From Alloascoidea hylecoeti (lineage: Eukaryota), in contig BCKZ01000016.1 in NCBI GenBank assembly GCA_001600815.1, forward strand, positions 175,077 to 239,076: a DNA stretch of 64,000 bases, in the 5' to 3' direction. The notes under the pieces are model-generated. The model was not told the origin of the DNA. It saw nothing but the letters and a program-made list of their open reading frames with translations, and searched no databases. Of the stretch, positions 9,133-64,000 are shown piece by piece; position 1 is the stretch's first letter; the number at the start of each line of letters is the position of its first letter. The position numbers and the translations under genes are program-made.

Positions 9133-11229
9133 AATTGATTTTTGATATTGTATAAAGTAAAAAAGAGAAAGTAAAAAAACCTATTTATATCAAAAATTTA
9201 GAGTTTATAGAAATATAGATAAAGCAAATTAAATTTGGATGAACCATACGGACAACGGAGTAATACTGATTGGTTATAATTTAAACATATTTAAATGATT
9301 GTTACTATTTAGTAATTACTATTCTAATTCAGGCCTTAGCTTTCAATGCCTTGCTATAGCATCGGACACCGTTATAATGATGTCTCATTAGGTCATCTGC
9401 ATAGAGGTGGCGCATAACGCCACCTTCCCACTAGTGTTATCCAATCAAATCAGTCTCTACCACTTCTGCGAATCCCTTAAGCCGATCAGCCACCTAGATA
9501 TACACACATTATTGGCTACTGAATGTGGCGCCTTGCTGGGATAACAACATCACTATCCCAATTTCATTGTTTACAGAAAAAACAGCGAGTTATCCGATCT
9601 TTAGCAAAAACAGCTATATTTCTGTTTTCAATATAAAATTTGATAAAATAACCAATGACCAAAATCTTAAATATCTATATATTTTACTTTCACATTATTA
9701 ATTGTCCTCTTTACAATTGGTTAAGTCTTTTCATGAGCAATATAGTGGCAAAAATTTAAGCAACTTCTAAAATTAATAAAGTTTATCGGATCCCGAATAT
9801 ATACATGTACACCATTAATTGGGAAAACCGATAATACTATTACTATTATATTATAAGAATATAATGAGCTAATTAGTAATGTTAAGTTGATTTATACTAA
9901 AGTAATTATTTTAATTATCTAGTAGTAGAAATATGGTACATTGTTCCATATATGGTCATAAATCAACCTGAAAGAAAAGAGCGTGCTTAATATAAAAGTT
10001 AATATTACGACTTCGATGCTCTTTTATAGATGATAATGATTGGTTGTATTCCCTATTGATACAACAAATGTACTATCGCTAGCGCTATTATGATTATTCT
10101 TTCTCTGTGATGATAACAATGAAGGACTTGTGCTTTATGTTTTTCAACCTTTTGTTAGATAGCATAAATTATTATAAATTTATATCATTAATTATATAGT
10201 ATTTGCTTTACCTTTAGTTGCAGAATACATATGCATAAACCATATAAGGGAATATAATTTATACTAAGCTAAATTTAAATTTTGCTCACTACTCTTTCTT
10301 TATAAGAATATATACCAGTATGTCCTATAAAAATATAATATTAATACTAATTTATATAACCAAATTTTATTCTTCAACCTTCATATTTTATTTTATTTTT
10401 GGATATAAACTTTTTGATACCTATAATTTGAAATTATTTTTTTTTACTACAATTATTTTTACACTGATCATATATATTATATTTTCGTCTATTGTTTATG
10501 TCTATAGCGATATTCCATATATGCCATGAAACCCACTATTTTTAGGTCATTATATCATCTTATTATTTTGTTTATTCTTTTGGTTCTCTATTATATTTTA
10601 TATGCCTTTGTTTTACAAGTTCTTTTTAGTATTATTTAGTTGTTTTTATCAATTTATAATTATCCTACTTGTCAGAAGATGAAGAGGTTTTTCATTCTAT
10701 AAATGGTTTTTTTCCTCAAATAGTTTCTAGTTAGTCACTAAAGGAACACATCTTAAACCATTGTGAAATTAAGACAAATATATTATAAATATCATGGCAA
10801 TGGTCAACCGAGAAAAAATTTGATTATATTTTAAATATCAATTACAAATGGATATGTTAATGTTCATATATTCAGATTTATTTTTATCGGACATGATATT
10901 ACAAAAATAACAATAAATAGTTTATAATAAAATATTAATAAGTCTGAAAAAAAATATGTAATGAACTTAATTAGTTTTCTCCTGAACGTAGGAATCCACT
11001 CTACACTCTACAGCATGGTGTCTATGGACTCGAATTTGCAATAATACCTCTACTACGAGTCATAGTTTTTGTAAAAGTAAAATTTCTATATATATATTTA
11101 CGAATATATACAATTATTATACATGTATCAGATATCGATATTTTAGTTTATTTGAGTAGTATGTGATTAACAACCGATGAAGAACAGAGTATGTATGTCT
11201 TCCGAGTTTAAAAATTTCCCGAAGGGGAT

Positions 11230-11231
<2 letters not shown>

Positions 11232-11263
<32 letters not shown>

Positions 11264-11385
11264 CAAGTGGCCATTAAGGCTCTATATTAAACTGCTTTTT
11301 CTATAAATACTATAGTTATAACAACCAAAAAATTGTGAAAATAAAAAGACCTATTACTAGGCAAAAATACCTCTTACTAATGTTA
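11232..11385 (-). mobile_element. Very short 5'-truncated LINE copy: 122-nt 3' end plus 32-nt poly(A)
   Basis: 11264-11385 matches 11619-11740 with 3 mismatches; T32 run at 11232-11263 is a poly(A) tail on the minus strand. Confidence 0.7.
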
Positions 11386-11417
11386 GAGGTTTAAAGCAGA
11401 AAAAATAGTTTATCAAA

Positions 11418-11489
11418 TGCCACCTAGCGGAATTGAACCGCCGACCTTTGCATTACAAGTGCAACGCTCTACCACTAAGCTAAGGAGGC
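11418..11489 (-). tRNA. tRNA-Thr(UGU)
   Basis: GCCTCCTTAGCTTAGTGGTAGAGCGTTGCACT-TGT-AATGCAAAGGTCGGCGGTTCAATTCCGCTAGGTGGCA, full cloverleaf; T6 terminator downstream. Confidence 0.96.
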
Positions 11490-11507
11490 ACTTTCGTGGC
11501 CGTTTTA

Positions 11508-11607
11508 NNNNNNNNNNNNNNNNNNNNNNNNNNNNNNNNNNNNNNNNNNNNNNNNNNNNNNNNNNNNNNNNNNNNNNNNNNNNNNNNNNNNNNNNNNNNN
11601 NNNNNNN
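11508..11607. other. Assembly gap (100 N)
   Basis: N run abutting a poly-T tract. Confidence 1.
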
Positions 11608-12350
11608 TTTTTTTTTTTCAAGTGGCCATTAAGGCTCTATATTAAACTGCTTTTTCTATAAATACTATAGTTATAACAACCAAAAAATTGTGAAAATAAA
11701 AATACCTATTGCTAGGCAAAAATACCTATTACTAATGTTATAAGTTCACTCTTTTTTGAGTAATGTTGTTACATTTTATAGTATTATTGCCATCATTTCC
11801 AACTTCTTACTCAATCAATACGAATAAAGGATGTAATATTTATACATTTTTCCTCTTTTTCTTTTTTTGTCCGTAGCACCTAAGTGATTCAGAACAAAGC
11901 TTTGTGGAGTCCCTTTCAATCATTTTACACCATTGTGATTCTGATAAACTATTCTCCTGTTGATAATATCTTCTGTTGTGATATTTTCCAACCAAAAAAA
12001 CGGTTACCGCTCTTAATATTAAATCTTTTCTTTCCTTATGATTAAAGTCAAGAAAAGATTTCACTTCAGTTTCCTTTTCTTTTAGTTCTATCACTTTTTG
12101 GTTATAGGACCATATTTTCTTTGTAATTTCACATGTAGAGAAAACATGTTCAAAGGATAATTCCAACTTTTAACAGCAAGGACATCTTTTGTCTTTAAGG
12201 TTGTTGTAATAATGTAAAAAAAAATGAACCACTGCAGAATATTTGGTATTCATCTATAACGTTTGATAGATATAGGTTATTTTTGTGGATTGTTTTCCAT
12301 GGCAAACCCCATCAATTGACTCCAATTTTGTAAGTTTTTACCATTTCTTT
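11608..12350 (-). mobile_element. 5'-truncated non-LTR retrotransposon (L1-clade/Zorro-like): ORF2 C-terminal zinc knuckle, 3' UTR, poly(A)
   Basis: Minus strand reads PWKTIHKNNLYLSNVIDEYQIF (frameshift in a T9 run) ...KDKRCPCC*KLELSFEHVFSTCEITKKIW, a CX2CX8HX4C zf-RVT-type motif. Stop at 11840, ~220-nt 3' UTR, poly(A) running into the gap. 5' boundary approximate. Confidence 0.75.
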
Positions 12351-12374
12351 TTAGTTCTAAAAGGAAAAAATATA

Positions 12375-12398
12375 TGCGAACTCTGTGGATCGAACACA

Positions 12399-12440
<42 letters not shown>

Positions 12441-12447
12441 AGTCCGC
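12375..12447 (-). tRNA. tRNA-Phe(GAA), intronless
   Basis: GCGGACTTAGCTCAGTTGGGAGAGCGTCAGACT-GAA-GATCTGAAGGTCCTGTGTTCGATCCACAGAGTTCGCA; T6 terminator follows. Confidence 0.97.
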
Positions 12448-12559
12448 TGGGATTATATCCAACAAAAGATTCCTTTTTACACTTTAGACTATATTACTGT
12501 GATTTCCTCAGAATTTATAGTTTCTAGTTATATAATTTAATAGGAGGTATTTTATTGTC

Positions 12560-12646
12560 AAAATAAAAATAAAAATAAAAATAAAAATAAAAATAAAAAT
12601 AAAAATAAAAATAAAAATAAAAATAAAAATAAAAATAAAAATAAAA
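12560..12646. repeat. (AAAAAT)n microsatellite
   Basis: About 14 copies. Confidence 0.95.
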
Positions 12647-12899
12647 TGAATATGAGAATACAAAAAGAGAAAACAAAAGAGAAATAAAGTAGGAGCGGAG
12701 GTTTTATACTCTTAGAGTGATTTTATCAATTTAATAATTTTTTAGTTAGAAGGTTTAAATTATTTAGATATATATATATGTAAAGTTTAAAAAAAAATGA
12801 GACGTCACCACAATATTAAATGTATAGTAAAAACTTATGATTGTTCCAATTGATTTAAAACAACTTTTTTTTAAATTTAAAATTCTCCAAGCTCTAGAA

Positions 12900-13200
12900 G
12901 TAGTGTATGATTTAATAGACTTGGGAATATAAGTGACTAAATAATTTAAAAAAATAGCCGAGTAAATTTTAAGCAAGTTACGCATATGCATGCTAAGCAT
13001 TTTTTGGATATGCAGGGATACTATCACAAACTTTAAATGAAATAGACCTGGGGAATTTTAATGTTTAAATCTTTGAGAAAATAAAACAATGCCATAAAAA
13101 AAAAATTAAAAAATTAAGATTAATGGTGGTTTAGACTTAATAACAGTAGATCAGAATCTGAGGGTTGGGGCTGCCTTCAAAGTTCGAATTCAATATTAGA
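12900..13200 (+). mobile_element. Possible older LINE ORF2 relic
   Basis: IKINGGLDLITVDQNLRVGAAFKV resembles the GGLGL motif downstream of L1-clade RT domains; heavily decayed. Confidence 0.3.
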
Positions 13201-13469
13201 TTATTATAATGGACTATAAATCCATTAGTATCTACAATAAAACTACCCTTTACCATCTACTATAGGTAATAAGACTATATATTAAGATCCAGATCTGGTA
13301 ATAAACACTATTACCTAAACAAGGATATAATAACGTTAACAGATATATTTACATATATGACAAATTTATTCTTTTTCTATTAAATATACTTTCTTCTATA
13401 AATAAAATATAAAAAACTACTGTTTTCCCTTAGAAAACGATAGCGTTTTAATATACTTATATGTCAATG

Positions 13470-14130
13470 TTCAACTTCAAATACGTCTAATAATTCCACA
13501 GATTCTGGAATCGAACTGAGCATCTCAACAATTGAGAAACACCCGCAACATCGTACATTAAAAACCACGTAAGACCCCTTTTGTAAAAACACGCATACGT
13601 AATATTTTCGGCATGTAAAAGGTCTTATCAAAGACTCCTTGTAGTATAAGGACATCTGATTCCGTGTGTCTTATGGCATGGGCTAGAACTTGGAAGGGAA
13701 GATTCACTGTATAGAGGGGTTCCTAGTAGCAGAAAAAAAGGATTTACCACATGTTAACATAAGTTATACAACGTTCGTAAGAGGCCTCTGGTGGCAATGA
13801 TGAGGGTGGAATATTCAAGCTGGATAACAGACCTATCTATAAAGCCAGAATCACAATGAATTGGTTTCGTGAGAAAAGGATAGAGGTGTGAGAGTTTTTT
13901 TCACTGGATCTGAATCTAATTGAGCACATGGGAACCCTTCATAAAATAGTTCACTTGAAGACTGGAATTGAGATTATGCGCCTTCCACATGGTTCATACA
14001 AGAAGAAAGATGTATATTTTAAGTCTTTTTCAAAAGTGGGGCTAATGTAGACCAGGATATCATTGATTGACACCCTGCCTCGTAGGTGGTGGCCGTCTAT
14101 GACGTTAAAGGGGCAAACACTAAATACTAA
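13470..14130 (+). mobile_element. Tc1/mariner transposase pseudogene (DD34E-type)
   Basis: GIFKLDNRPIYKARITMNWFREKRIEV*EFFSLDLNLIEHM and terminal TLPRR...DVKGANTKY* (stop ends 14130). Confidence 0.85.
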
Positions 14131-15706
14131 TTTTAAAATGTTATTTTGTATAGCCTAATAGAATATCTAAAACAGCGCATTATGGGCTATTTTAAGAGCC
14201 GTTTGAGGTAATGTAAAATTTTTGATGTCTGGGGTTATAATATTGCCATTTTCTTACTGATTTATGGGTATCTGAAGTCCCTCCTAAATTGCCCATCTGT
14301 CTACCGAAATGTGGTACGCAAGTCCGCTGATTGTTTTCGGGTCTATCGATTATTTTCTATATTACCAAAAGTCATTGTCGTGATCTAGTTGGAAACCTAC
14401 CGGTTACCGGAACACGACAGTAGTCATTTGACTCATTACTTAAACTGTGTTGTATGCATATAGGCCTATATCTCTAACTAGTAACCAATACTCCTTCAAC
14501 AATATAATATTATATACATATGTATGTTTGTTCCTCTAGTCAGCCTTAATCTCAAATCGAAACCTGCAAATATGAGTGGTAATGCAATTATTGTTGAACC
14601 TGATAAGAACAGAAAATATTAATTCTCGAAAGCTTATTTTTTATTAATAATAAAAAACGTGAAAGGCTCAAATCAACAAAAGAAAGACAGAAAATATAAG
14701 AATCATCAGTTATCTCTTATTGGTAATATTTAAACAGCTCACCGGAAAGGGCGATGTCATTATTTGAATTTAATTATACGGTATTATACAAAGAAGAGTT
14801 AGAGTGAGATAGCGAGAAAAACACACTAGAATCTTAAAAGTTACTAGAGAAAAACCAAATTGCCTAAAACACTAATTTTAATAGCTATCTATAATAACCG
14901 TAAATACGATCTATATATAGCATAGTCGTTAAATGGGGCATAAACATATTTACTTTTAATTAAAGTTTTAAAGAAATAATCGCCAAACGTCGCATCTTGA
15001 TCATAGCCCAATTAAACAAGCTTGAGTAGGTAATAATAGGTAATATGTATCGTTAGTTATGACATTAACCATTTTTAGAATGATAAGTTATGTGCATCTG
15101 GGGTACTATAGTTTCATCCAATACCAGAGATTATTATTATATCTCGATTGATATAATTATTAGGCTTATTATTGAGCTGATATATTGGTATCCAATGTTG
15201 ATACTAACTTGACAGTGATTGTCATTCTATTTTCAATTAGAAATTCACATTAGCGTGATATCGGTTAAGATAGGGTTCTGCAACTTAAACTTACTTGGAA
15301 ATAAAGTAGTCCTTTTACTGAGTAAATAAACAAGTTAACCCTTGCTAAGCCTTGCCAAGATAAAATAAAGGTGGAATGCTAATAATGCCAAACTTTCACA
15401 ACAATTGCGATGTATGATGAGCTAGTATTAAATCTACTAATATACCTCGCCGCAAAACTCAAAGATCTCATCTCGCATAATATTGTTAACGTTAAATACA
15501 TTATAGTTGGGGAATATCAAACTTACTTATAGTTTTGTGGTACATTCTCACTCATTGGTTGTAGCACTATGTATGTTCTTCTTACTCGGTGATATTGAGG
15601 AAGCTGACGTGTTTGTACCTGGAATACGGTTCAAAATACATATATAAACAGGCTTATTCCACTTTTTCCAATCATACAAATATCATTATTTCAATTTAAT
15701 TTCACT

Positions 15707-15979
15707 ATGAGAGTTCAATTATCATCAATCTTTTTGTCAATTTACTTTGCAGTTGCCGTCTTTGCAGCCTCATCAGCAGTCAGCAGTAAAGCATCATTGG
15801 TCAGCAGTCACGCATCTTCTGTTAAAACATCTATTTCAAGTGTAGCCTCCAAATCTGCTTCCGCTTCCAAATCTGCCTCCAAATCCGGATCTAAATCAGG
15901 TGCTCCAGCTAACTCTGCTTCTGTTATGGCAGTTGGACTCGTTTCACTTTCCGTCATTTTAGGATTGGCTGCTTGTTAA
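15707..15979 (+). CDS. Small Ser/Ala/Lys-rich secreted protein, probably GPI-anchored
   Basis: Signal peptide, SKSA repeats, SG-A omega-like site, hydrophobic C-terminus; TATATAAA at 15641. Confidence 0.8.
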   Translation: MRVQLSSIFLSIYFAVAVFAASSAVSSKASLVSSHASSVKTSISSVASKSASASKSASKSGSKSGAPANSASVMAVGLVSLSVILGLAAC

Positions 15980-16341
15980 TGGTATTAAAATATCAAATTT
16001 TGAATCAATGAAAATGTTGTGGTTGCTATATTATATTTCTGGAGTTGAAATCTGGTCTGGAAATATTACATTTATTGGATTATAATTATAAATAGCTTTT
16101 TTTAGGTAACTGGTATATTTATTAAATTCTATAATATACTCTTTTTATACTACATGCTTACAGTGATTCAGGCAGGCCTCCATATCTATAAGAATTTGTA
16201 TATGTTTGTACTAAATATATAATAACGTTAATGTTTAAGTGTTCCTTGTACGGTATGTACATGTAGGTTTACAACTTACACCTTCATCTTGGAAAATTAA
16301 TATTGACCTCACTTTCATACATTCAGTTGAACGCAACAGTC

Positions 16342-59790: not shown

Positions 59791-62700
59791 TTATGATTTT
59801 GATTTTGATTTTGATTTTGATTTTGCTAATATCATAGAAAGCAGAGTTCCTTCACCTGCCAAAGATAAAAAATCTGAAGTAGTCACTGATACTTGTGTAA
59901 GATCAGTCGTCGTTTTAGATTCATCTGATAATACCATAAAATCTTCATCATTTATATTCCCGTTATTGAGTGCTTCAACATTTTTCGAGGTGACTATTTC
60001 ATCTGACTGTTTATTATTTGGGTTTTCGACAGTTAGTGATAAATTATATTGAGAGGTTTTGTCACGAATAGGAGTAATAGAGGTGCTCACATTTGATGAC
60101 ATTCCGTTAGCTGGGTTTATATCAGCTACAGAATTAATTATGATTTGATCTGTTTTCTTTGGTTGTTGAACTTGTTGAACCTGTTGAGCATGCTCTTGAA
60201 GCGCCTGCTGTTGTTGTGCTTGTTGTTGTGCTTGTTGTTGTGCTTGTTGTTGTGCTTGTTGTTGTGCTTGTTGTTGTGCTTGTTGTTGTGCTTGTTGTTG
60301 TGCTTGTTGTTGNNNNNNNNNNNNNNNNNNNNNNNNNNNNNNNNNNNNNNNNNNNNNNNNNNNNNNNNNNNNNNNNNNNNNNNNNNNNNNNNNNNNNNNN
60401 NNNNNNNNNNNNGCTTGTTGTTGTGCTTGTTGTTGTGCTTGTTGTTGTGCTTGTTGTTGTGCTTGTTGTTGTGCTTGTTGTTGTGCTTGTTGTTGTGCTT
60501 GTTGTTGAATCCAATGCACTTGTTGAACTTGCTGAGCCTGTTGCTGAGTCTGTAGCTGAGTCTGTAGCTGAGCCTGTAGCTGAGCCTGTTGCTGAGCCTG
60601 TTGCTGAGCCTGTTGCTGAGCCTGTTGCTGAGCCTGTTGCTGAGCCTGTTGCTGAGCCTGTTGCTGAGCCTGTTGTAAATATATTGCATTTTCTCGTTTA
60701 AGGAGCTCACTAAGAAGATTCTGAATCATACCAAATAATAAGACACCATATTCTTTGTTTGAGATAGATTGCAGAATTAATTGATATCGGGTCCTTAGGG
60801 ATGTTGAAGGATCAAGTGCGTCAAGATTGGATAACTGATGCCGGATAAATTCCGACGGAATAGTAGCAACTCCTTCCCCCTTCAGAGAATTTATGATTTG
60901 AAGAAGGGGATATACCAGAGATGACCTGGATTTAATCTGCTTGATTGAATTTGTTGTACAAAGAGCAATAAAATTGTCAAACTCTTGTTCTTTTGTTCTT
61001 AGAGATGAAGTTTCAACACTAGACCCTGGTTGGTTTGTCATATCCACTGGTGGATTAACTCCCCGTGATTTATTCTGTGTATGTGTAGGTACTTTTATAG
61101 GGTTGAAATCCCTAGATATCTGTGAATTCATTTGTGGTCGTGTATTGCTTATATAATTTTGATGTTGCAACGTCTCTGACGGTTGTTGAAGTAAGGGCTG
61201 TTCGACTGAATATCCTTGATGTTGAGGTTGAGTCAAAATTGGTCTATTGTAACTATTTTGAGTGGTTGAACCCCCAATCTGAGGCTGTTGTGGCTGTGAT
61301 GGAGAGTGACGATTTCCCATATTACTGGAGCGTTGAATACTGGCTTGATGCAGGTTCCGAGATTTAGACATTCGTGTTTTAGCCGTGTTTAACTGTTCCG
61401 CTTCGGATTTTAATTGATTTATCAATTTATTAAAAATATTGAGTAATTCTACATTTCCTTTGCTTGATTTGGAGAGTAGGCCAACACGATTCGCTTCATA
61501 TTCCTGTATCTTCTGTTTAAGTGTTTCCAATCGTATGTCTAATAATGCTATATCTGAAAGATTGACTATCGTCTGAGTTACCGATGGAGTTATTGGCTGC
61601 TGATTACTTCCAACAAACGTAACGTTTTTAGAGGATTGGGGCAACGTCTCGTTTATAGCAGAAGTATCCGAAGAATGTCTTGTTATAATGGTATTGGGAG
61701 TGGTATTCGTCAGTGGTGATGGGTTGTGGATCCCTAAACTAGAGTGTCTAGGATTTTGATTCTGCACTGGAAATTTTGGGGATGAAGTTGTCACCGTGTT
61801 GTATCGGGAATTAATTTCATTTGCAGAATTCTGACGTTGATGTTGGATAGGGTTGTTGGACATCAGAATATTGGGACTATTCGTCTGTGTTTGATTTTGA
61901 TTATCTGATGAAACCATTACGCCATTACTTATGGAGGACTCGATGAAAGATCGGTCTCTGCCATTTTCGCCTGTTTTATGAGAAGCTTTACGATTAAATA
62001 ATGATCTTGATGAATCCGAATAATTATTAAAATTTTGGCTAGTCTGTTGAGGTACCGGGATATTTCGATGTTTGTTGGTGTTCATTTTTTCAGATCGATT
62101 TGTTTCATTTTGTTCAGATTGAGCTTGGTTCATAGAAATATCAGCATCTGCTTGATTTAGTTCTGAAAATATAACTTTATTTGGTACATACTCAGCATTA
62201 CCTTCCCTAGGTGGCTGTGAGGAAACTTCCCTTATTTCTTCATTGAAGAGGAAATACTTTGGGTCTACTTTTGGATTGGATTCATTCTTAACCCTCTGTT
62301 TTTTGAGTCTTTTAACAAAAAATGGTTCTATTCTTGACTTAAATCTGTAAGTTTTGTTCTTCAAGTCAGGTGAAGTAATCAAGTTATCATCTTTATCATA
62401 GATTTCATTGCAAATAAAGATAGGAGCCATCACAATTCGTATATTTTCAGGGATATTATAACAAACTGGTCCATCTTCCTCTAATGTAGTGTTTATGCCA
62501 CGAAGAAAAGAGGCAACTCGAGGACCTTTTAATAGGGAGCACGAGCATAAAATTTCTTCCAATTCATCAGGGTATTGTCCTTTACAGGAAGATTCTTCAT
62601 CTTCATCCAATATTATAACCTCCCTATTAGTCACAGGTTTAATGAATTCAGAATTTAAACTGCTTAGCTGCTCAACTGGAGGCATGGGAGATTTGTTGGA

Positions 62701-64000
62701 ACAGCCATCTGCATAATCTTGCATTTGATTCACTATTCTTGATTGATTTACTCCATCAGTATTTGTTTTCGCGATGTTATATTGATTTCCAGTTAATATG
62801 GGAGAATTGATATGATCACTGGCATTTTGTGGTTCACTCATCCCCGGTACTGGATCTGTTAGTGAAATCGAAGAAGATTCTGGAGCCCGATTTTGCTTAT
62901 GATTTGAAGGACTCGGGGGATGGGATTCGCGGTCAGATGCTGGGGGTGTTTCGGCTGCTCCTTTAATTTGTTGACTTTTAAGTACCACTACTCGTTGTTT
63001 AGCTTTTTGGTTATTTTGGTTGTCAGTGGAGTTTGTTAGTTTATCAGTCGCATCTGACTCTGATGATCTGATAATCTGTGTTTCAGAGCTATTTGCTTCA
63101 AATGCTTTACTTTCATTATTCGTAGAGTACTGCTTATTTCTTGGTTTCGTAACACCACCAGAACTTACCAGCGGAGAAGAAATTAATTGGTGAGCTTTGG
63201 TAGGTTCTTCGCAAATGGAATCTTTTTCAAATACTGATTGATCATTTATTTCGGAACTTTTTCTTTCCTGGTCTTCATGAGTCGTTATTTTATCTTTCGA
63301 TTCTTTTTCTGCTTCTAATGTTTTAAAGGTAATATGTTTTTTTCGGGTATGTGCCTCTATATTTTCTGTGGTAGAGTCATTACTTGTTATTCTTTTCAAC
63401 GATATCATACCGTCATTAGCATTTCCCTTTTGTGAATCTGAAGGCTGTACCTCAGGCTTGGGTATATTGCTGGTTTTACTTGCCTTATTAGTTTCAAACC
63501 TTTTTGTAGAATCAAATTTTGGGCTATGCTTAGGAGCCTTCGATAATATATTTGATTCAATTTCATTCATTACTTTTCCAGCAGAAAGTATGGAATGTGA
63601 AAGTAATTTGCTATTACTTTTTTGAGTATTAGGATCAGCTTGAACGTCATTGGAAGCAGGGGAGTCAGTAGGTACGGCATGTTTAGCAAATCTATTTGAT
63701 AAGTAGTGATCCTTATTGTTACTCACTTGTTCATCCCCATAATCGATCGCGATGTGGTGCAATTTGTTATCATTTGATTTTAAGGATTCGCGTCGCGTTT
63801 GTTGAACCTTATAGCCCATATGATCATTATGGTTACTATTACCACGCTTAATCGGAGGAGTATCTGCGCCGTTTATTAGATGTACACTACCTTTTCTCTT
63901 CCTGTGGTTTATAAACACAGAAGGAAGTCTTTTTTGAGAGTGTCCAGCTAGGGGCTTCCTGGGAAGGGACGGGATTGTCGCTTTTGGTGCTGATTCCGCA
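59791..64000 (-). CDS. Large low-complexity Q/N/S-rich protein of unknown function; 5' end beyond window
   Basis: Frame stays open from 59791 to the window end; long (QQQA)n tract; no domain recognised. Confidence 0.75.
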   Translation of the reverse strand, partial: AESAPKATIPSLPRKPLAGHSQKRLPSVFINHRKRKGSVHLINGADTPPIKRGNSNHNDHMGYKVQQTRRESLKSNDNKLHHIAIDYGDEQVSNNKDHYLSNRFAKHAVPTDSPASNDVQADPNTQKSNSKLLSHSILSAGKVMNEIESNILSKAPKHSPKFDSTKRFETNKASKTSNIPKPEVQPSDSQKGNANDGMISLKRITSNDSTTENIEAHTRKKHITFKTLEAEKESKDKITTHEDQERKSSEINDQSVFEKDSICEEPTKAHQLISSPLVSSGGVTKPRNKQYSTNNESKAFEANSSETQIIRSSESDATDKLTNSTDNQNNQKAKQRVVVLKSQQIKGAAETPPASDRESHPPSPSNHKQNRAPESSSISLTDPVPGMSEPQNASDHINSPILTGNQYNIAKTNTDGVNQSRIVNQMQDYADGCSNKSPMPPVEQLSSLNSEFIKPVTNREVIILDEDEESSCKGQYPDELEEILCSCSLLKGPRVASFLRGINTTLEEDGPVCYNIPENIRIVMAPIFICNEIYDKDDNLITSPDLKNKTYRFKSRIEPFFVKRLKKQRVKNESNPKVDPKYFLFNEEIREVSSQPPREGNAEYVPNKVIFSELNQADADISMNQAQSEQNETNRSEKMNTNKHRNIPVPQQTSQNFNNYSDSSRSLFNRKASHKTGENGRDRSFIESSISNGVMVSSDNQNQTQTNSPNILMSNNPIQHQRQNSANEINSRYNTVTTSSPKFPVQNQNPRHSSLGIHNPSPLTNTTPNTIITRHSSDTSAINETLPQSSKNVTFVGSNQQPITPSVTQTIVNLSDIALLDIRLETLKQKIQEYEANRVGLLSKSSKGNVELLNIFNKLINQLKSEAEQLNTAKTRMSKSRNLHQASIQRSSNMGNRHSPSQPQQPQIGGSTTQNSYNRPILTQPQHQGYSVEQPLLQQPSETLQHQNYISNTRPQMNSQISRDFNPIKVPTHTQNKSRGVNPPVDMTNQPGSSVETSSLRTKEQEFDNFIALCTTNSIKQIKSRSSLVYPLLQIINSLKGEGVATIPSEFIRHQLSNLDALDPSTSLRTRYQLILQSISNKEYGVLLFGMIQNLLSELLKRENAIYLQQAQQQAQQQAQQQAQQQAQQQAQQQAQQQAQLQAQLQTQLQTQQQAQQVQQVHWIQQQAQQQAQQQAQQQAQQQAQQQAQQQAQQQXXXXXXXXXXXXXXXXXXXXXXXXXXXXXXXXXXQQQAQQQAQQQAQQQAQQQAQQQAQQQAQQQAQQQQALQEHAQQVQQVQQPKKTDQIIINSVADINPANGMSSNVSTSITPIRDKTSQYNLSLTVENPNNKQSDEIVTSKNVEALNNGNINDEDFMVLSDESKTTTDLTQVSVTTSDFLSLAGEGTLLSMILAKSKSKSKSKS
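60205..60676 (-). repeat. Coding 12-bp tandem repeats (QQQA)n with a 100-N gap at 60313-60412
   Basis: (CAACAACAAGCA)n and (CAGCAACAGGCT)n blocks. Confidence 0.95.

Follow-up and report, generated by a model that had tools for sequence, protein, structure and literature searches.

How retroelements persist in a compact genome is classically illustrated by those that insert beside transfer RNA (tRNA) genes. For yeasts, tRNA targeting has so far been the domain of long terminal repeat (LTR) retrotransposons, which integrate upstream of the gene by means of an integrase, and among the non-LTR retrotransposons, or long interspersed nuclear elements (LINEs), it has so far been seen only in those of social amoebae: the accessible parts of two reviews of retrotransposons associated with RNA polymerase III (Pol III) genes list LTR elements alone, all of them upstream, for yeasts, and name the dictyostelid elements TRE5, TRE3 and NLTR-A/B as the only non-LTR elements that target tRNA genes (PMC5911963, PMC5006619). 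So could a LINE of a budding yeast have come to use the same genes as its landing sites? The question is raised by a 64,000-nt stretch of Alloascoidea hylecoeti DNA (contig BCKZ01000016.1, positions 175,077 to 239,076; this whole stretch is hereafter called the window) in which two pieces of a LINE lie close behind two tRNA genes and in the same orientation. The initial annotation of this DNA, made from its letters alone, had pointed to the upstream LTR elements of yeasts and to the downstream TRE3 of Dictyostelium as precedents, in agreement with what the two reviews say in the parts at hand. In the full-text literature that we searched, from which most subscription journals are missing, we found no tRNA-targeting LINE described for budding yeasts. 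In our judgement, it is slightly better than an even bet that this family is the first LINE of budding yeasts, and of fungi, to home to Pol III genes, that it does so in tens of copies placed 20-25 nt behind the tRNA gene and co-oriented with it, probably by recognizing the transcription complex at its TFIIIC or termination end, and that it acquired this behavior independently of TRE3.

The comparison with the described systems is instructive, within the limits of the accessible parts of the sources. TRE3 of Dictyostelium discoideum, which is listed under L1 in PMC5911963, inserts 40-150 bp downstream of tRNA genes and in the same orientation (PMC5911963, PMC5006619); with the yeast LINE it shares this location and orientation, a compact host genome and frequent 5' truncation. 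However, the insertions of TRE3 are farther away and involve an external B box, whereas the yeast LINE starts within 20-32 bp, right behind the terminator, and the hosts are an amoeba and a budding yeast, respectively. The two elements are compared here in their behavior, and convergence appears more likely than kinship as the source of the likeness. In D. discoideum, Skipper-2 (DGLT-P), a Ty3/gypsy element of dictyostelids, inserts 8-23 bp past the tRNA gene and so uses nearly the same interval; it is nevertheless an LTR retrotransposon that depends on an integrase rather than on target-primed reverse transcription. Ty3, Ty1, Tca8/beta and Tyl3/Ylt1/Tyl6 are, likewise, yeast retroelements with Pol III genes as safe havens, but each of these is an LTR element whose insertions lie on the upstream side of the gene.

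The Saccharomycotina do have LINEs of their own, namely Zorro3 of Candida albicans and Ylli of Yarrowia lipolytica, which resemble the present element in the Cys-rich C-terminus of the second open reading frame (ORF2), in the poly(A) and in the many 5'-truncated copies. For Ylli, the accessible part of the report describes 5'-truncated copies with poly(A) and without a target-site duplication (TSD), and does not mention a tRNA link (PMC5014426). Zorro3 inserts into poly(A) tracts and, in the parts of the reports at hand, its 30 new insertions were not associated with tRNA genes (PMC1965478, PMC7175516). Its target tracts consist of 9-12 nt of poly(A), its 5' tracts of at least 6 A, and it has poly(A) on both sides, whereas the LINE described here has 2-5 A; with A5, A3 and A2 at the 5' junctions, these are not insertions into poly(A) tracts of the Zorro3 kind.

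Two LINE copies behind two tRNA genes

Along the minus strand, the features of the locus follow each other in the order tRNA-Phe(GAA), a 743-nt LINE fragment, a gap of 100 N, tRNA-Thr(UGU), and a 122-nt copy of the LINE 3' end with A32 (Table 1), an arrangement that had been proposed in the initial annotation and is borne out by the sequence, by ARAGORN and by Rfam. Both LINE copies of the 64-kb window are thus located behind its two tRNA genes (2/2 and 2/2), and both are co-oriented with them; no third tRNA gene was detected in the 64 kb by ARAGORN, by ARAGORN with intron search or by Rfam, and no third LINE copy by BLASTN, TBLASTX or a pattern search allowing 3 mismatches. The 37-nt 3' end of the LINE occurs twice in the window compared to 0 times in 100 shuffles. 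If copies were placed at random over the 31,074 positions outside open reading frames (ORFs), both 5' ends would come to lie in the 35 nt behind a tRNA gene, on its strand, with a probability of about 1.3e-6; the loosest definition tried, which admits up to 200 nt on either side and in either orientation, still gives about 7e-4.

Table 1. Features, junctions and depth bins of the locus, in window coordinates (UTR, untranslated region; depth in multiples of single copy)
Feature	Position	Strand	Remarks
tRNA-Phe(GAA), intronless	12375..12447	-	ARAGORN; Rfam RF00005, 67.3 bits
T6 run, likely Pol III terminator of tRNA-Phe	12365..12370	-	4 nt 3' of gene; from sequence
Spacer, tRNA-Phe terminator to LINE	12351..12364	-	contains T/AAAAA at 12353/12352, candidate nick site
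tRNA-Phe junction	12353/12352		T/AAAAA; 22 nt past last base of tRNA; 12 nt past T6
Long 5'-truncated LINE fragment, ~743 nt	~11608..12350	-	degenerate ORF2 C-terminus, 3' UTR, poly(A) cut by gap
CCHC zinc knuckle of ORF2	12131..12184	-	C-P-C-C, in-frame TAA 12172..12170, 7 residues, H, 4 residues, C; from translation
LINE 3' UTR, 221 nt	11619..11839	-	short internal duplication, missing from other copies
Scaffold gap, 100 N	11508..11607	.	separates poly(A) of long copy from 18 nt upstream of tRNA-Thr
tRNA-Thr(UGU)	11418..11489	-	Rfam, 70.5 bits; 11417..11490 in ARAGORN
T6 run, likely Pol III terminator of tRNA-Thr	11400..11405	-	12 nt 3' of gene; from sequence
Spacer behind tRNA-Thr terminator	11386..11399	-	contains TTT/AAACC at 11393/11392, candidate nick site, and left copy of possible 5-nt TSD
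tRNA-Thr junction	11393/11392		TTT/AAACC; 25 nt past last base of tRNA; 7 nt past T6
Short LINE copy, last 122 nt of 3' UTR	11264..11385	-	3 mismatches to 11740..11619
Poly(A) of short copy, exactly 32 A	11232..11263	-	then CC at 11231..11230, possible right copy of TSD
Second tRNA-Thr junction			T6/AAT; 20 nt past last base of tRNA; 0 nt past T6
LINE 3' end, depth bin	11624-11675		61-104 (4/4 runs)
LINE interior, depth bin	12040-12091		13-23 (4/4 runs)
5' end of fragment, depth bin	12300-12351		3-7 (4/4 runs)

What kind of element do these pieces represent? The sequence supports the view that both are copies of a single non-LTR (LINE) retrotransposon family with an L1-type zinc knuckle, given that the hallmarks of LINEs are present, namely the CCHC motif at the C-terminus of ORF2, a 3' poly(A) (A32 in one copy, at least A11 in the other) after an identical 3' end, and variable 5' truncation. 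When its stop codon is written as X, the knuckle matches the Pfam family zf-RVT (PF13966), the zinc-binding tail of LINE reverse transcriptases, over the last 29 positions of the profile (57-85 of 85), with an E-value of 3.8e-4 and a sub-threshold score of 21.5 bits (gathering cut-off 27.5). The ORF2 frame of the long copy terminates at the stop codon 11842..11840, and at least 11 A of its poly(A) precede the 100-N gap; this copy is dead because its reading frame is broken further upstream. A predicted fold of the 3' UTR (z-score -2.1, with 7/200 shuffles equally good) is too weak to build on.

The start of each copy can be located with reasonable precision. Other genomic copies, which are 5-10% diverged, match the long copy until their homology stops at 12347-12350, and the 5' end of the long copy is accordingly placed 24-27 nt behind tRNA-Phe, where a spacer of about 25 bp had been reported at the outset. 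In the short copy, secure LINE sequence begins 32 nt past the end of tRNA-Thr (a looser alignment adds up to 8 nt, to 11393), so that the 32-bp spacer first read at this gene is confirmed, as are the 3 differences over the 122 sites shared by the two copies. Given that the tRNAs, the trailers and the truncation points are all different, we regard the two insertions as separate events, in line with the independent truncation that the initial annotation had proposed. Of the TSD that it had suggested around the short copy, only AAACC is common to both flanks, at 11392..11388 and again behind the tail; with three of its five letters being A beside a poly(A), the repeat carries almost no weight.

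The geometry of the junctions is more telling. We take the T6 runs behind the tRNA genes to be the likely Pol III terminators, and in all three readable junctions (two in the window and one in the sequencing runs described below) the LINE is preceded by a T/A step located at or shortly past such a run. This T-then-A pattern is left by L1-type endonucleases, which nick TTTT/AA on the other strand. The poly(A) of the LINE cannot have been primed on the T run of the terminator itself because this would give the opposite orientation to the tRNA, and, by the same token of co-orientation, a plain preference for A tracts is disfavored. A separate observation concerns the tRNA-Phe side: the segment 12358-12339, which spans the trailer and the LINE junction, is alike in 18/20 positions to 12091-12072 inside the LINE, and this could reflect chance, microhomology at the 5' join or the remnant of an older copy.

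Further copies in public sequencing runs

The locus was compared with contigs from four public runs that come from three studies (X1 to X4, with X1 and X2 from the same sample and X3 from a wood-decay metagenome), which were aligned to positions 11000-12540. Depth, defined as the summed contig depth divided by that of the single-copy flank 11000-11207, gives an order of magnitude only, not a copy number. In all four runs it decreases from the 3' end of the LINE through its interior to the 5' end of the fragment (Table 1), and these data support a family of tens of copies, mostly short 3' ends, with the 5'-truncation gradient typical of LINEs. The truncation points observed are at about 12350, at 12193, at 12084 and at the equivalent of 11385. 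Up to 12 contigs per run leave the poly(A) end at 11608/11609 and continue into unlike sequence (agreement 0.49-0.67), which implies many distinct insertion sites. The 23-nt 3' end of the LINE has 0 matches in the collections of metagenome contigs, prokaryote genomes and viral contigs. As a side note on variation within the family, the 3' UTR of other copies lacks either 35 nt (11692-11726; joint 11691>11727) or about 48 nt (11713-11760; joint 11357>11761), and the window copies have a short internal duplication at the place where the 3' UTR of these other copies is shorter.

Six distinct joints are found among those listed, three of which are length variants in the 3' UTR or body, one connects LINE to LINE, and two connect LINE to tRNA. 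In the joint 12084>11416, which is seen in X1 at a depth of 19.4, roughly single copy, the 21 letters ATTAAAAAAGATACTAAAAAT lie between the LINE and the end of tRNA-Thr, and the complement of these letters on the tRNA strand is a trailer that carries T5 and T6 runs. We read this joint as same-strand because the break occurs exactly at the tRNA end and the trailer resembles a terminator; it then reads as a second tRNA-Thr gene with a 23-nt trailer, followed by a LINE truncated at 12084. The joint 12193>12374, present in X1, X2 and X4, is same-strand as well and connects the end of tRNA-Phe, across an uncounted number of letters, with a LINE that is truncated at 12193; this is a second tRNA-Phe gene followed by a truncated LINE. 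Thus, among the joints listed, all four tRNA-LINE junctions (two in the window and two elsewhere) have the LINE behind the tRNA and co-oriented with it, and the measurable spacers are 24-27 nt (Phe), 32 nt (Thr) and 23 nt (second Thr). The proposal of the initial annotation that the family homes to sites past Pol III terminators, based on two copies, has gained two co-oriented junctions, and it is not extended beyond these four to the family as a whole.

The remaining connection of interest is the joint 11947>11613 (X1), where the tail of one LINE, with about 6 A, continues directly into a LINE truncated near 11986, the two being arranged head to tail; the second of these LINEs is missing 16 nt between two short direct repeats. 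With regard to the junctions in the window itself, contigs of X2, X3 and X4 match the tRNA-Phe/LINE junction without a difference (among the contigs listed), and the bin of the tRNA-Thr/short-copy junction has depths of 52.5 in X1, 100.7 in X2, 10.5 in X3 and 0.16 in X4.

An insertion model and its alternatives

The explanation that we favor, with a probability of roughly 0.6, is that the LINE uses T/A steps located 20-25 nt behind tRNA genes, shortly beyond the Pol III terminator, as sites of target-primed reverse transcription. According to this scenario, the LINE ribonucleoprotein would be brought to a transcriptionally competent tRNA gene, and the most likely tether, in analogy to the proposal made for TRE3, would be TFIIIC, which binds the B box and extends as far as the terminator. 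The endonuclease would nick the antisense strand with respect to the tRNA at the T/A step, the position of which is observed; the exposed T stretch would pair with the poly(A) tail and prime reverse transcription, as in the standard target-primed model; and premature stops of the reverse transcriptase would produce the differing 5' ends seen at the four truncation points given above. Repeated hits on one tRNA gene would displace older copies downstream and build head-to-tail stacks, of which the LINE-LINE joint would be one outcome.

Insertion behind the terminator would leave the tRNA gene intact and avoid the protein-coding genes of a compact genome. If the hypothesis is true, this LINE represents a second, independent case of tRNA targeting by a LINE, with a spread of only about 5 bp, and a mirror image of the Ty elements that insert upstream. 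Genetic work on the targeting step is difficult in the amoeba hosts, whereas the lineage of the present host has the best-understood Pol III machinery, so that the reading of TFIIIC, of the terminator or of open chromatin by a LINE would become testable; furthermore, the marked-element assay for Zorro3 demonstrates that LINEs of yeasts can be tracked experimentally. The hypothesis would also have a bearing on the evolution of the neighborhoods of tRNA genes.

Several considerations weigh against it. Joints could be recognized only with tRNA-Phe or tRNA-Thr, any other neighbors appearing as unreadable loose ends, and the tally of at least four tRNA-LINE junctions has to be seen against very roughly 60-100 copies estimated from depth. 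The LINE-LINE joint represents at least one copy that does not directly abut a tRNA gene. A TSD beyond AAACC is not evident, the 3' flank of the long copy being lost in the gap. In X4, an 8668-nt contig matches only tRNA-Thr with 17-18 upstream bases (11415-11507) and continues downstream into 7969 nt of unlike sequence; it is unexplained, and a polymorphic insertion, a separate locus or, at 8x cover, a contig path that runs through a repeat could each account for it. Both window copies are truncated at points 3' of the reverse transcriptase domain, and protein searches found neither a full-length element nor a relative. Finally, the TFIIIC tether is one that we purely infer, by analogy.

Could the same observations be explained without any homing? 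In that case, the LINE would use any T/A step in AT-rich intergenic DNA, and its copies would survive in gene-poor spots where tRNA genes and repeats collect. The L1-like step at all three readable junctions is in keeping with such a preference, the window offers 461 sites of the sequence TTAAA alone, both strands counted, and the copies are located inside a 7-kb ORF-poor region with 25-29% GC; one LINE-to-LINE junction exists, and Zorro3 targets poly(A) tracts without a tRNA link in the accessible part of its description (PMC1965478). We nevertheless consider this explanation rather improbable, given that survival bias fails to account for the 20-25 nt spacing and the co-orientation in four of the four junctions, that P is about 1e-6 for the window copies even on non-ORF sequence, and that the junctions carry 2-5 A compared to the 9-12 A tracts of Zorro3. 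A different route to the same layout would be offered by chimeric retrocopies, which arise when the reverse transcriptase switches template from LINE RNA to pre-tRNA, so that tRNA and LINE form a single insertion. The fit is good as far as it concerns a whole small Pol III RNA joined, in the same orientation, to a variably 5'-truncated LINE 3' end with poly(A), and the X4 contig has tRNA-Thr with its upstream bases at what is possibly another locus. Precedents are also at hand in the accessible parts of the literature, for L1 with U6 and, at 21 primate loci, with tRNA (PMC11838501), and, among fungi, for a LINE in Magnaporthe (PMC2104539). However, the U6/L1 and tRNA/L1 chimeras are joined at the RNA end and have a TSD around the whole unit, and the known tRNA/L1 cases are uncommon and in most instances involve half a tRNA, usually in antisense (PMC11838501), whereas at the yeast locus full tRNA genes, both of them full-length, high-scoring and in sense (2/2 in the window), are followed by the trailer, the terminator and extra bases before the LINE begins. 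The non-LINE sequence past T6 amounts to 7-15 nt (Thr), 12-17 nt (Phe) and 3 nt (second Thr), so the joins are not at the transcript end; CCA is absent from the junctions, and the trailers differ between the two tRNA-Thr loci. Taken together, this makes a chimeric origin quite unlikely.

The two further alternatives bear mostly on the short copy. With a tRNA head, a LINE-derived tail of 122 nt and poly(A), the tRNA-Thr, its spacer and the LINE piece present the classic layout of a tRNA-derived short interspersed nuclear element (SINE), that is, one mobile unit transcribed by Pol III. Such a unit is barely plausible in view of the T6 terminator between head and tail, of the second tRNA-Thr junction with its different trailer and LINE start (12084), and of the depth of the junction bin 11364-11415, about 1-2 times single copy as against 6-10 times for the tRNA and 61-104 times for the tail; moreover, no TSD bracketing the unit is present in the 18 nt visible upstream. 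It is just as hard to credit that one 122-nt copy was placed twice by scaffolding around the gap. The 100 N between the copies, the shortness of the piece 11221-11507 and the near absence of X4 depth on the tRNA-Thr/short-copy junction are compatible with such an artefact, but the copies differ at 3/122 sites and have different 5' neighbors (the tRNA-Thr trailer and ORF2 sequence), the short copy is contiguous both with the unique flank 11000-11231 and with tRNA-Thr, and depth is present on the Thr junction bin in X1, X2 and X3 and on the Phe junction in X2, X3 and X4. We retain insertion behind the terminator as the preferred reading of the locus.

Protein searches, host and surroundings

Searches with the 137-aa C-terminal fragment of ORF2, with the stop written as X, identified no relatives among the 242 candidates of a word-indexed search of longer proteins and nothing meaningful in the PDB (E >= 0.5). 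The sole HMMER match of the fragment among 1.84 billion representatives (P0001, E 1.9e-4) was rejected as spurious, as it consists of 8 stretches and has no Pfam reverse transcriptase family. In the two frame pieces upstream of the zinc knuckle, no Pfam family related to reverse transcriptases was detected.

The host is, judging by the genes of the window, a budding yeast (Saccharomycotina), as the initial annotation had assumed. Pfam families in the window include Gti1/Pac2, alternative oxidase and the fungal-specific transcription factor domain, along with ordinary eukaryotic housekeeping genes, and the aconitase shares 81-85% identity with the enzymes of Kuraishia, Cyberlindnera, Wickerhamomyces and Komagataella, with no named match closer than these (among the best 120 of 8000 scored matches). 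On the minus strand of 59791-63999, there is an open frame of 1342-1402 aa, which has no Pfam family at E 0.001 and contains a second 100-N gap (60313-60412).

Two observations pertain to tRNA-Thr(UGU). Its acceptor stem, read by eye, has a U:U mismatch at pair 4:69, notwithstanding the 70.5 bits in Rfam, and the depth of its sequence in X1-X3 suggests about 6-10 copies. The 18 nt between this gene and the 100-N gap are unique sequence. Both tRNA genes are surrounded by a 7-kb region of low GC content (9133-16341; 25-29% GC) that separates the alternative oxidase gene from its neighbor and contains no ORF of at least 250 aa, the longest stop-to-stop frame being 123 aa.

A second high-copy repeat is located upstream of tRNA-Phe, from 12501-12540 upward and perhaps to about 12720, with no second copy in the 64-kb window. 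Its depth in the bin 12508-12540 is 37-68 times single copy (4/4 runs). At this locus, the repeat ends at 12501, 54 nt upstream of tRNA-Phe, and other copies continue with shared sequence (agreement 0.97-0.98); most of the copies have an extra AC behind 12516. This repeat could be a solo LTR, or else a different element directed to the 5' side of tRNA genes. Inside or beside it, at about 12554-12650, lies a long (ATTTTT)n microsatellite.

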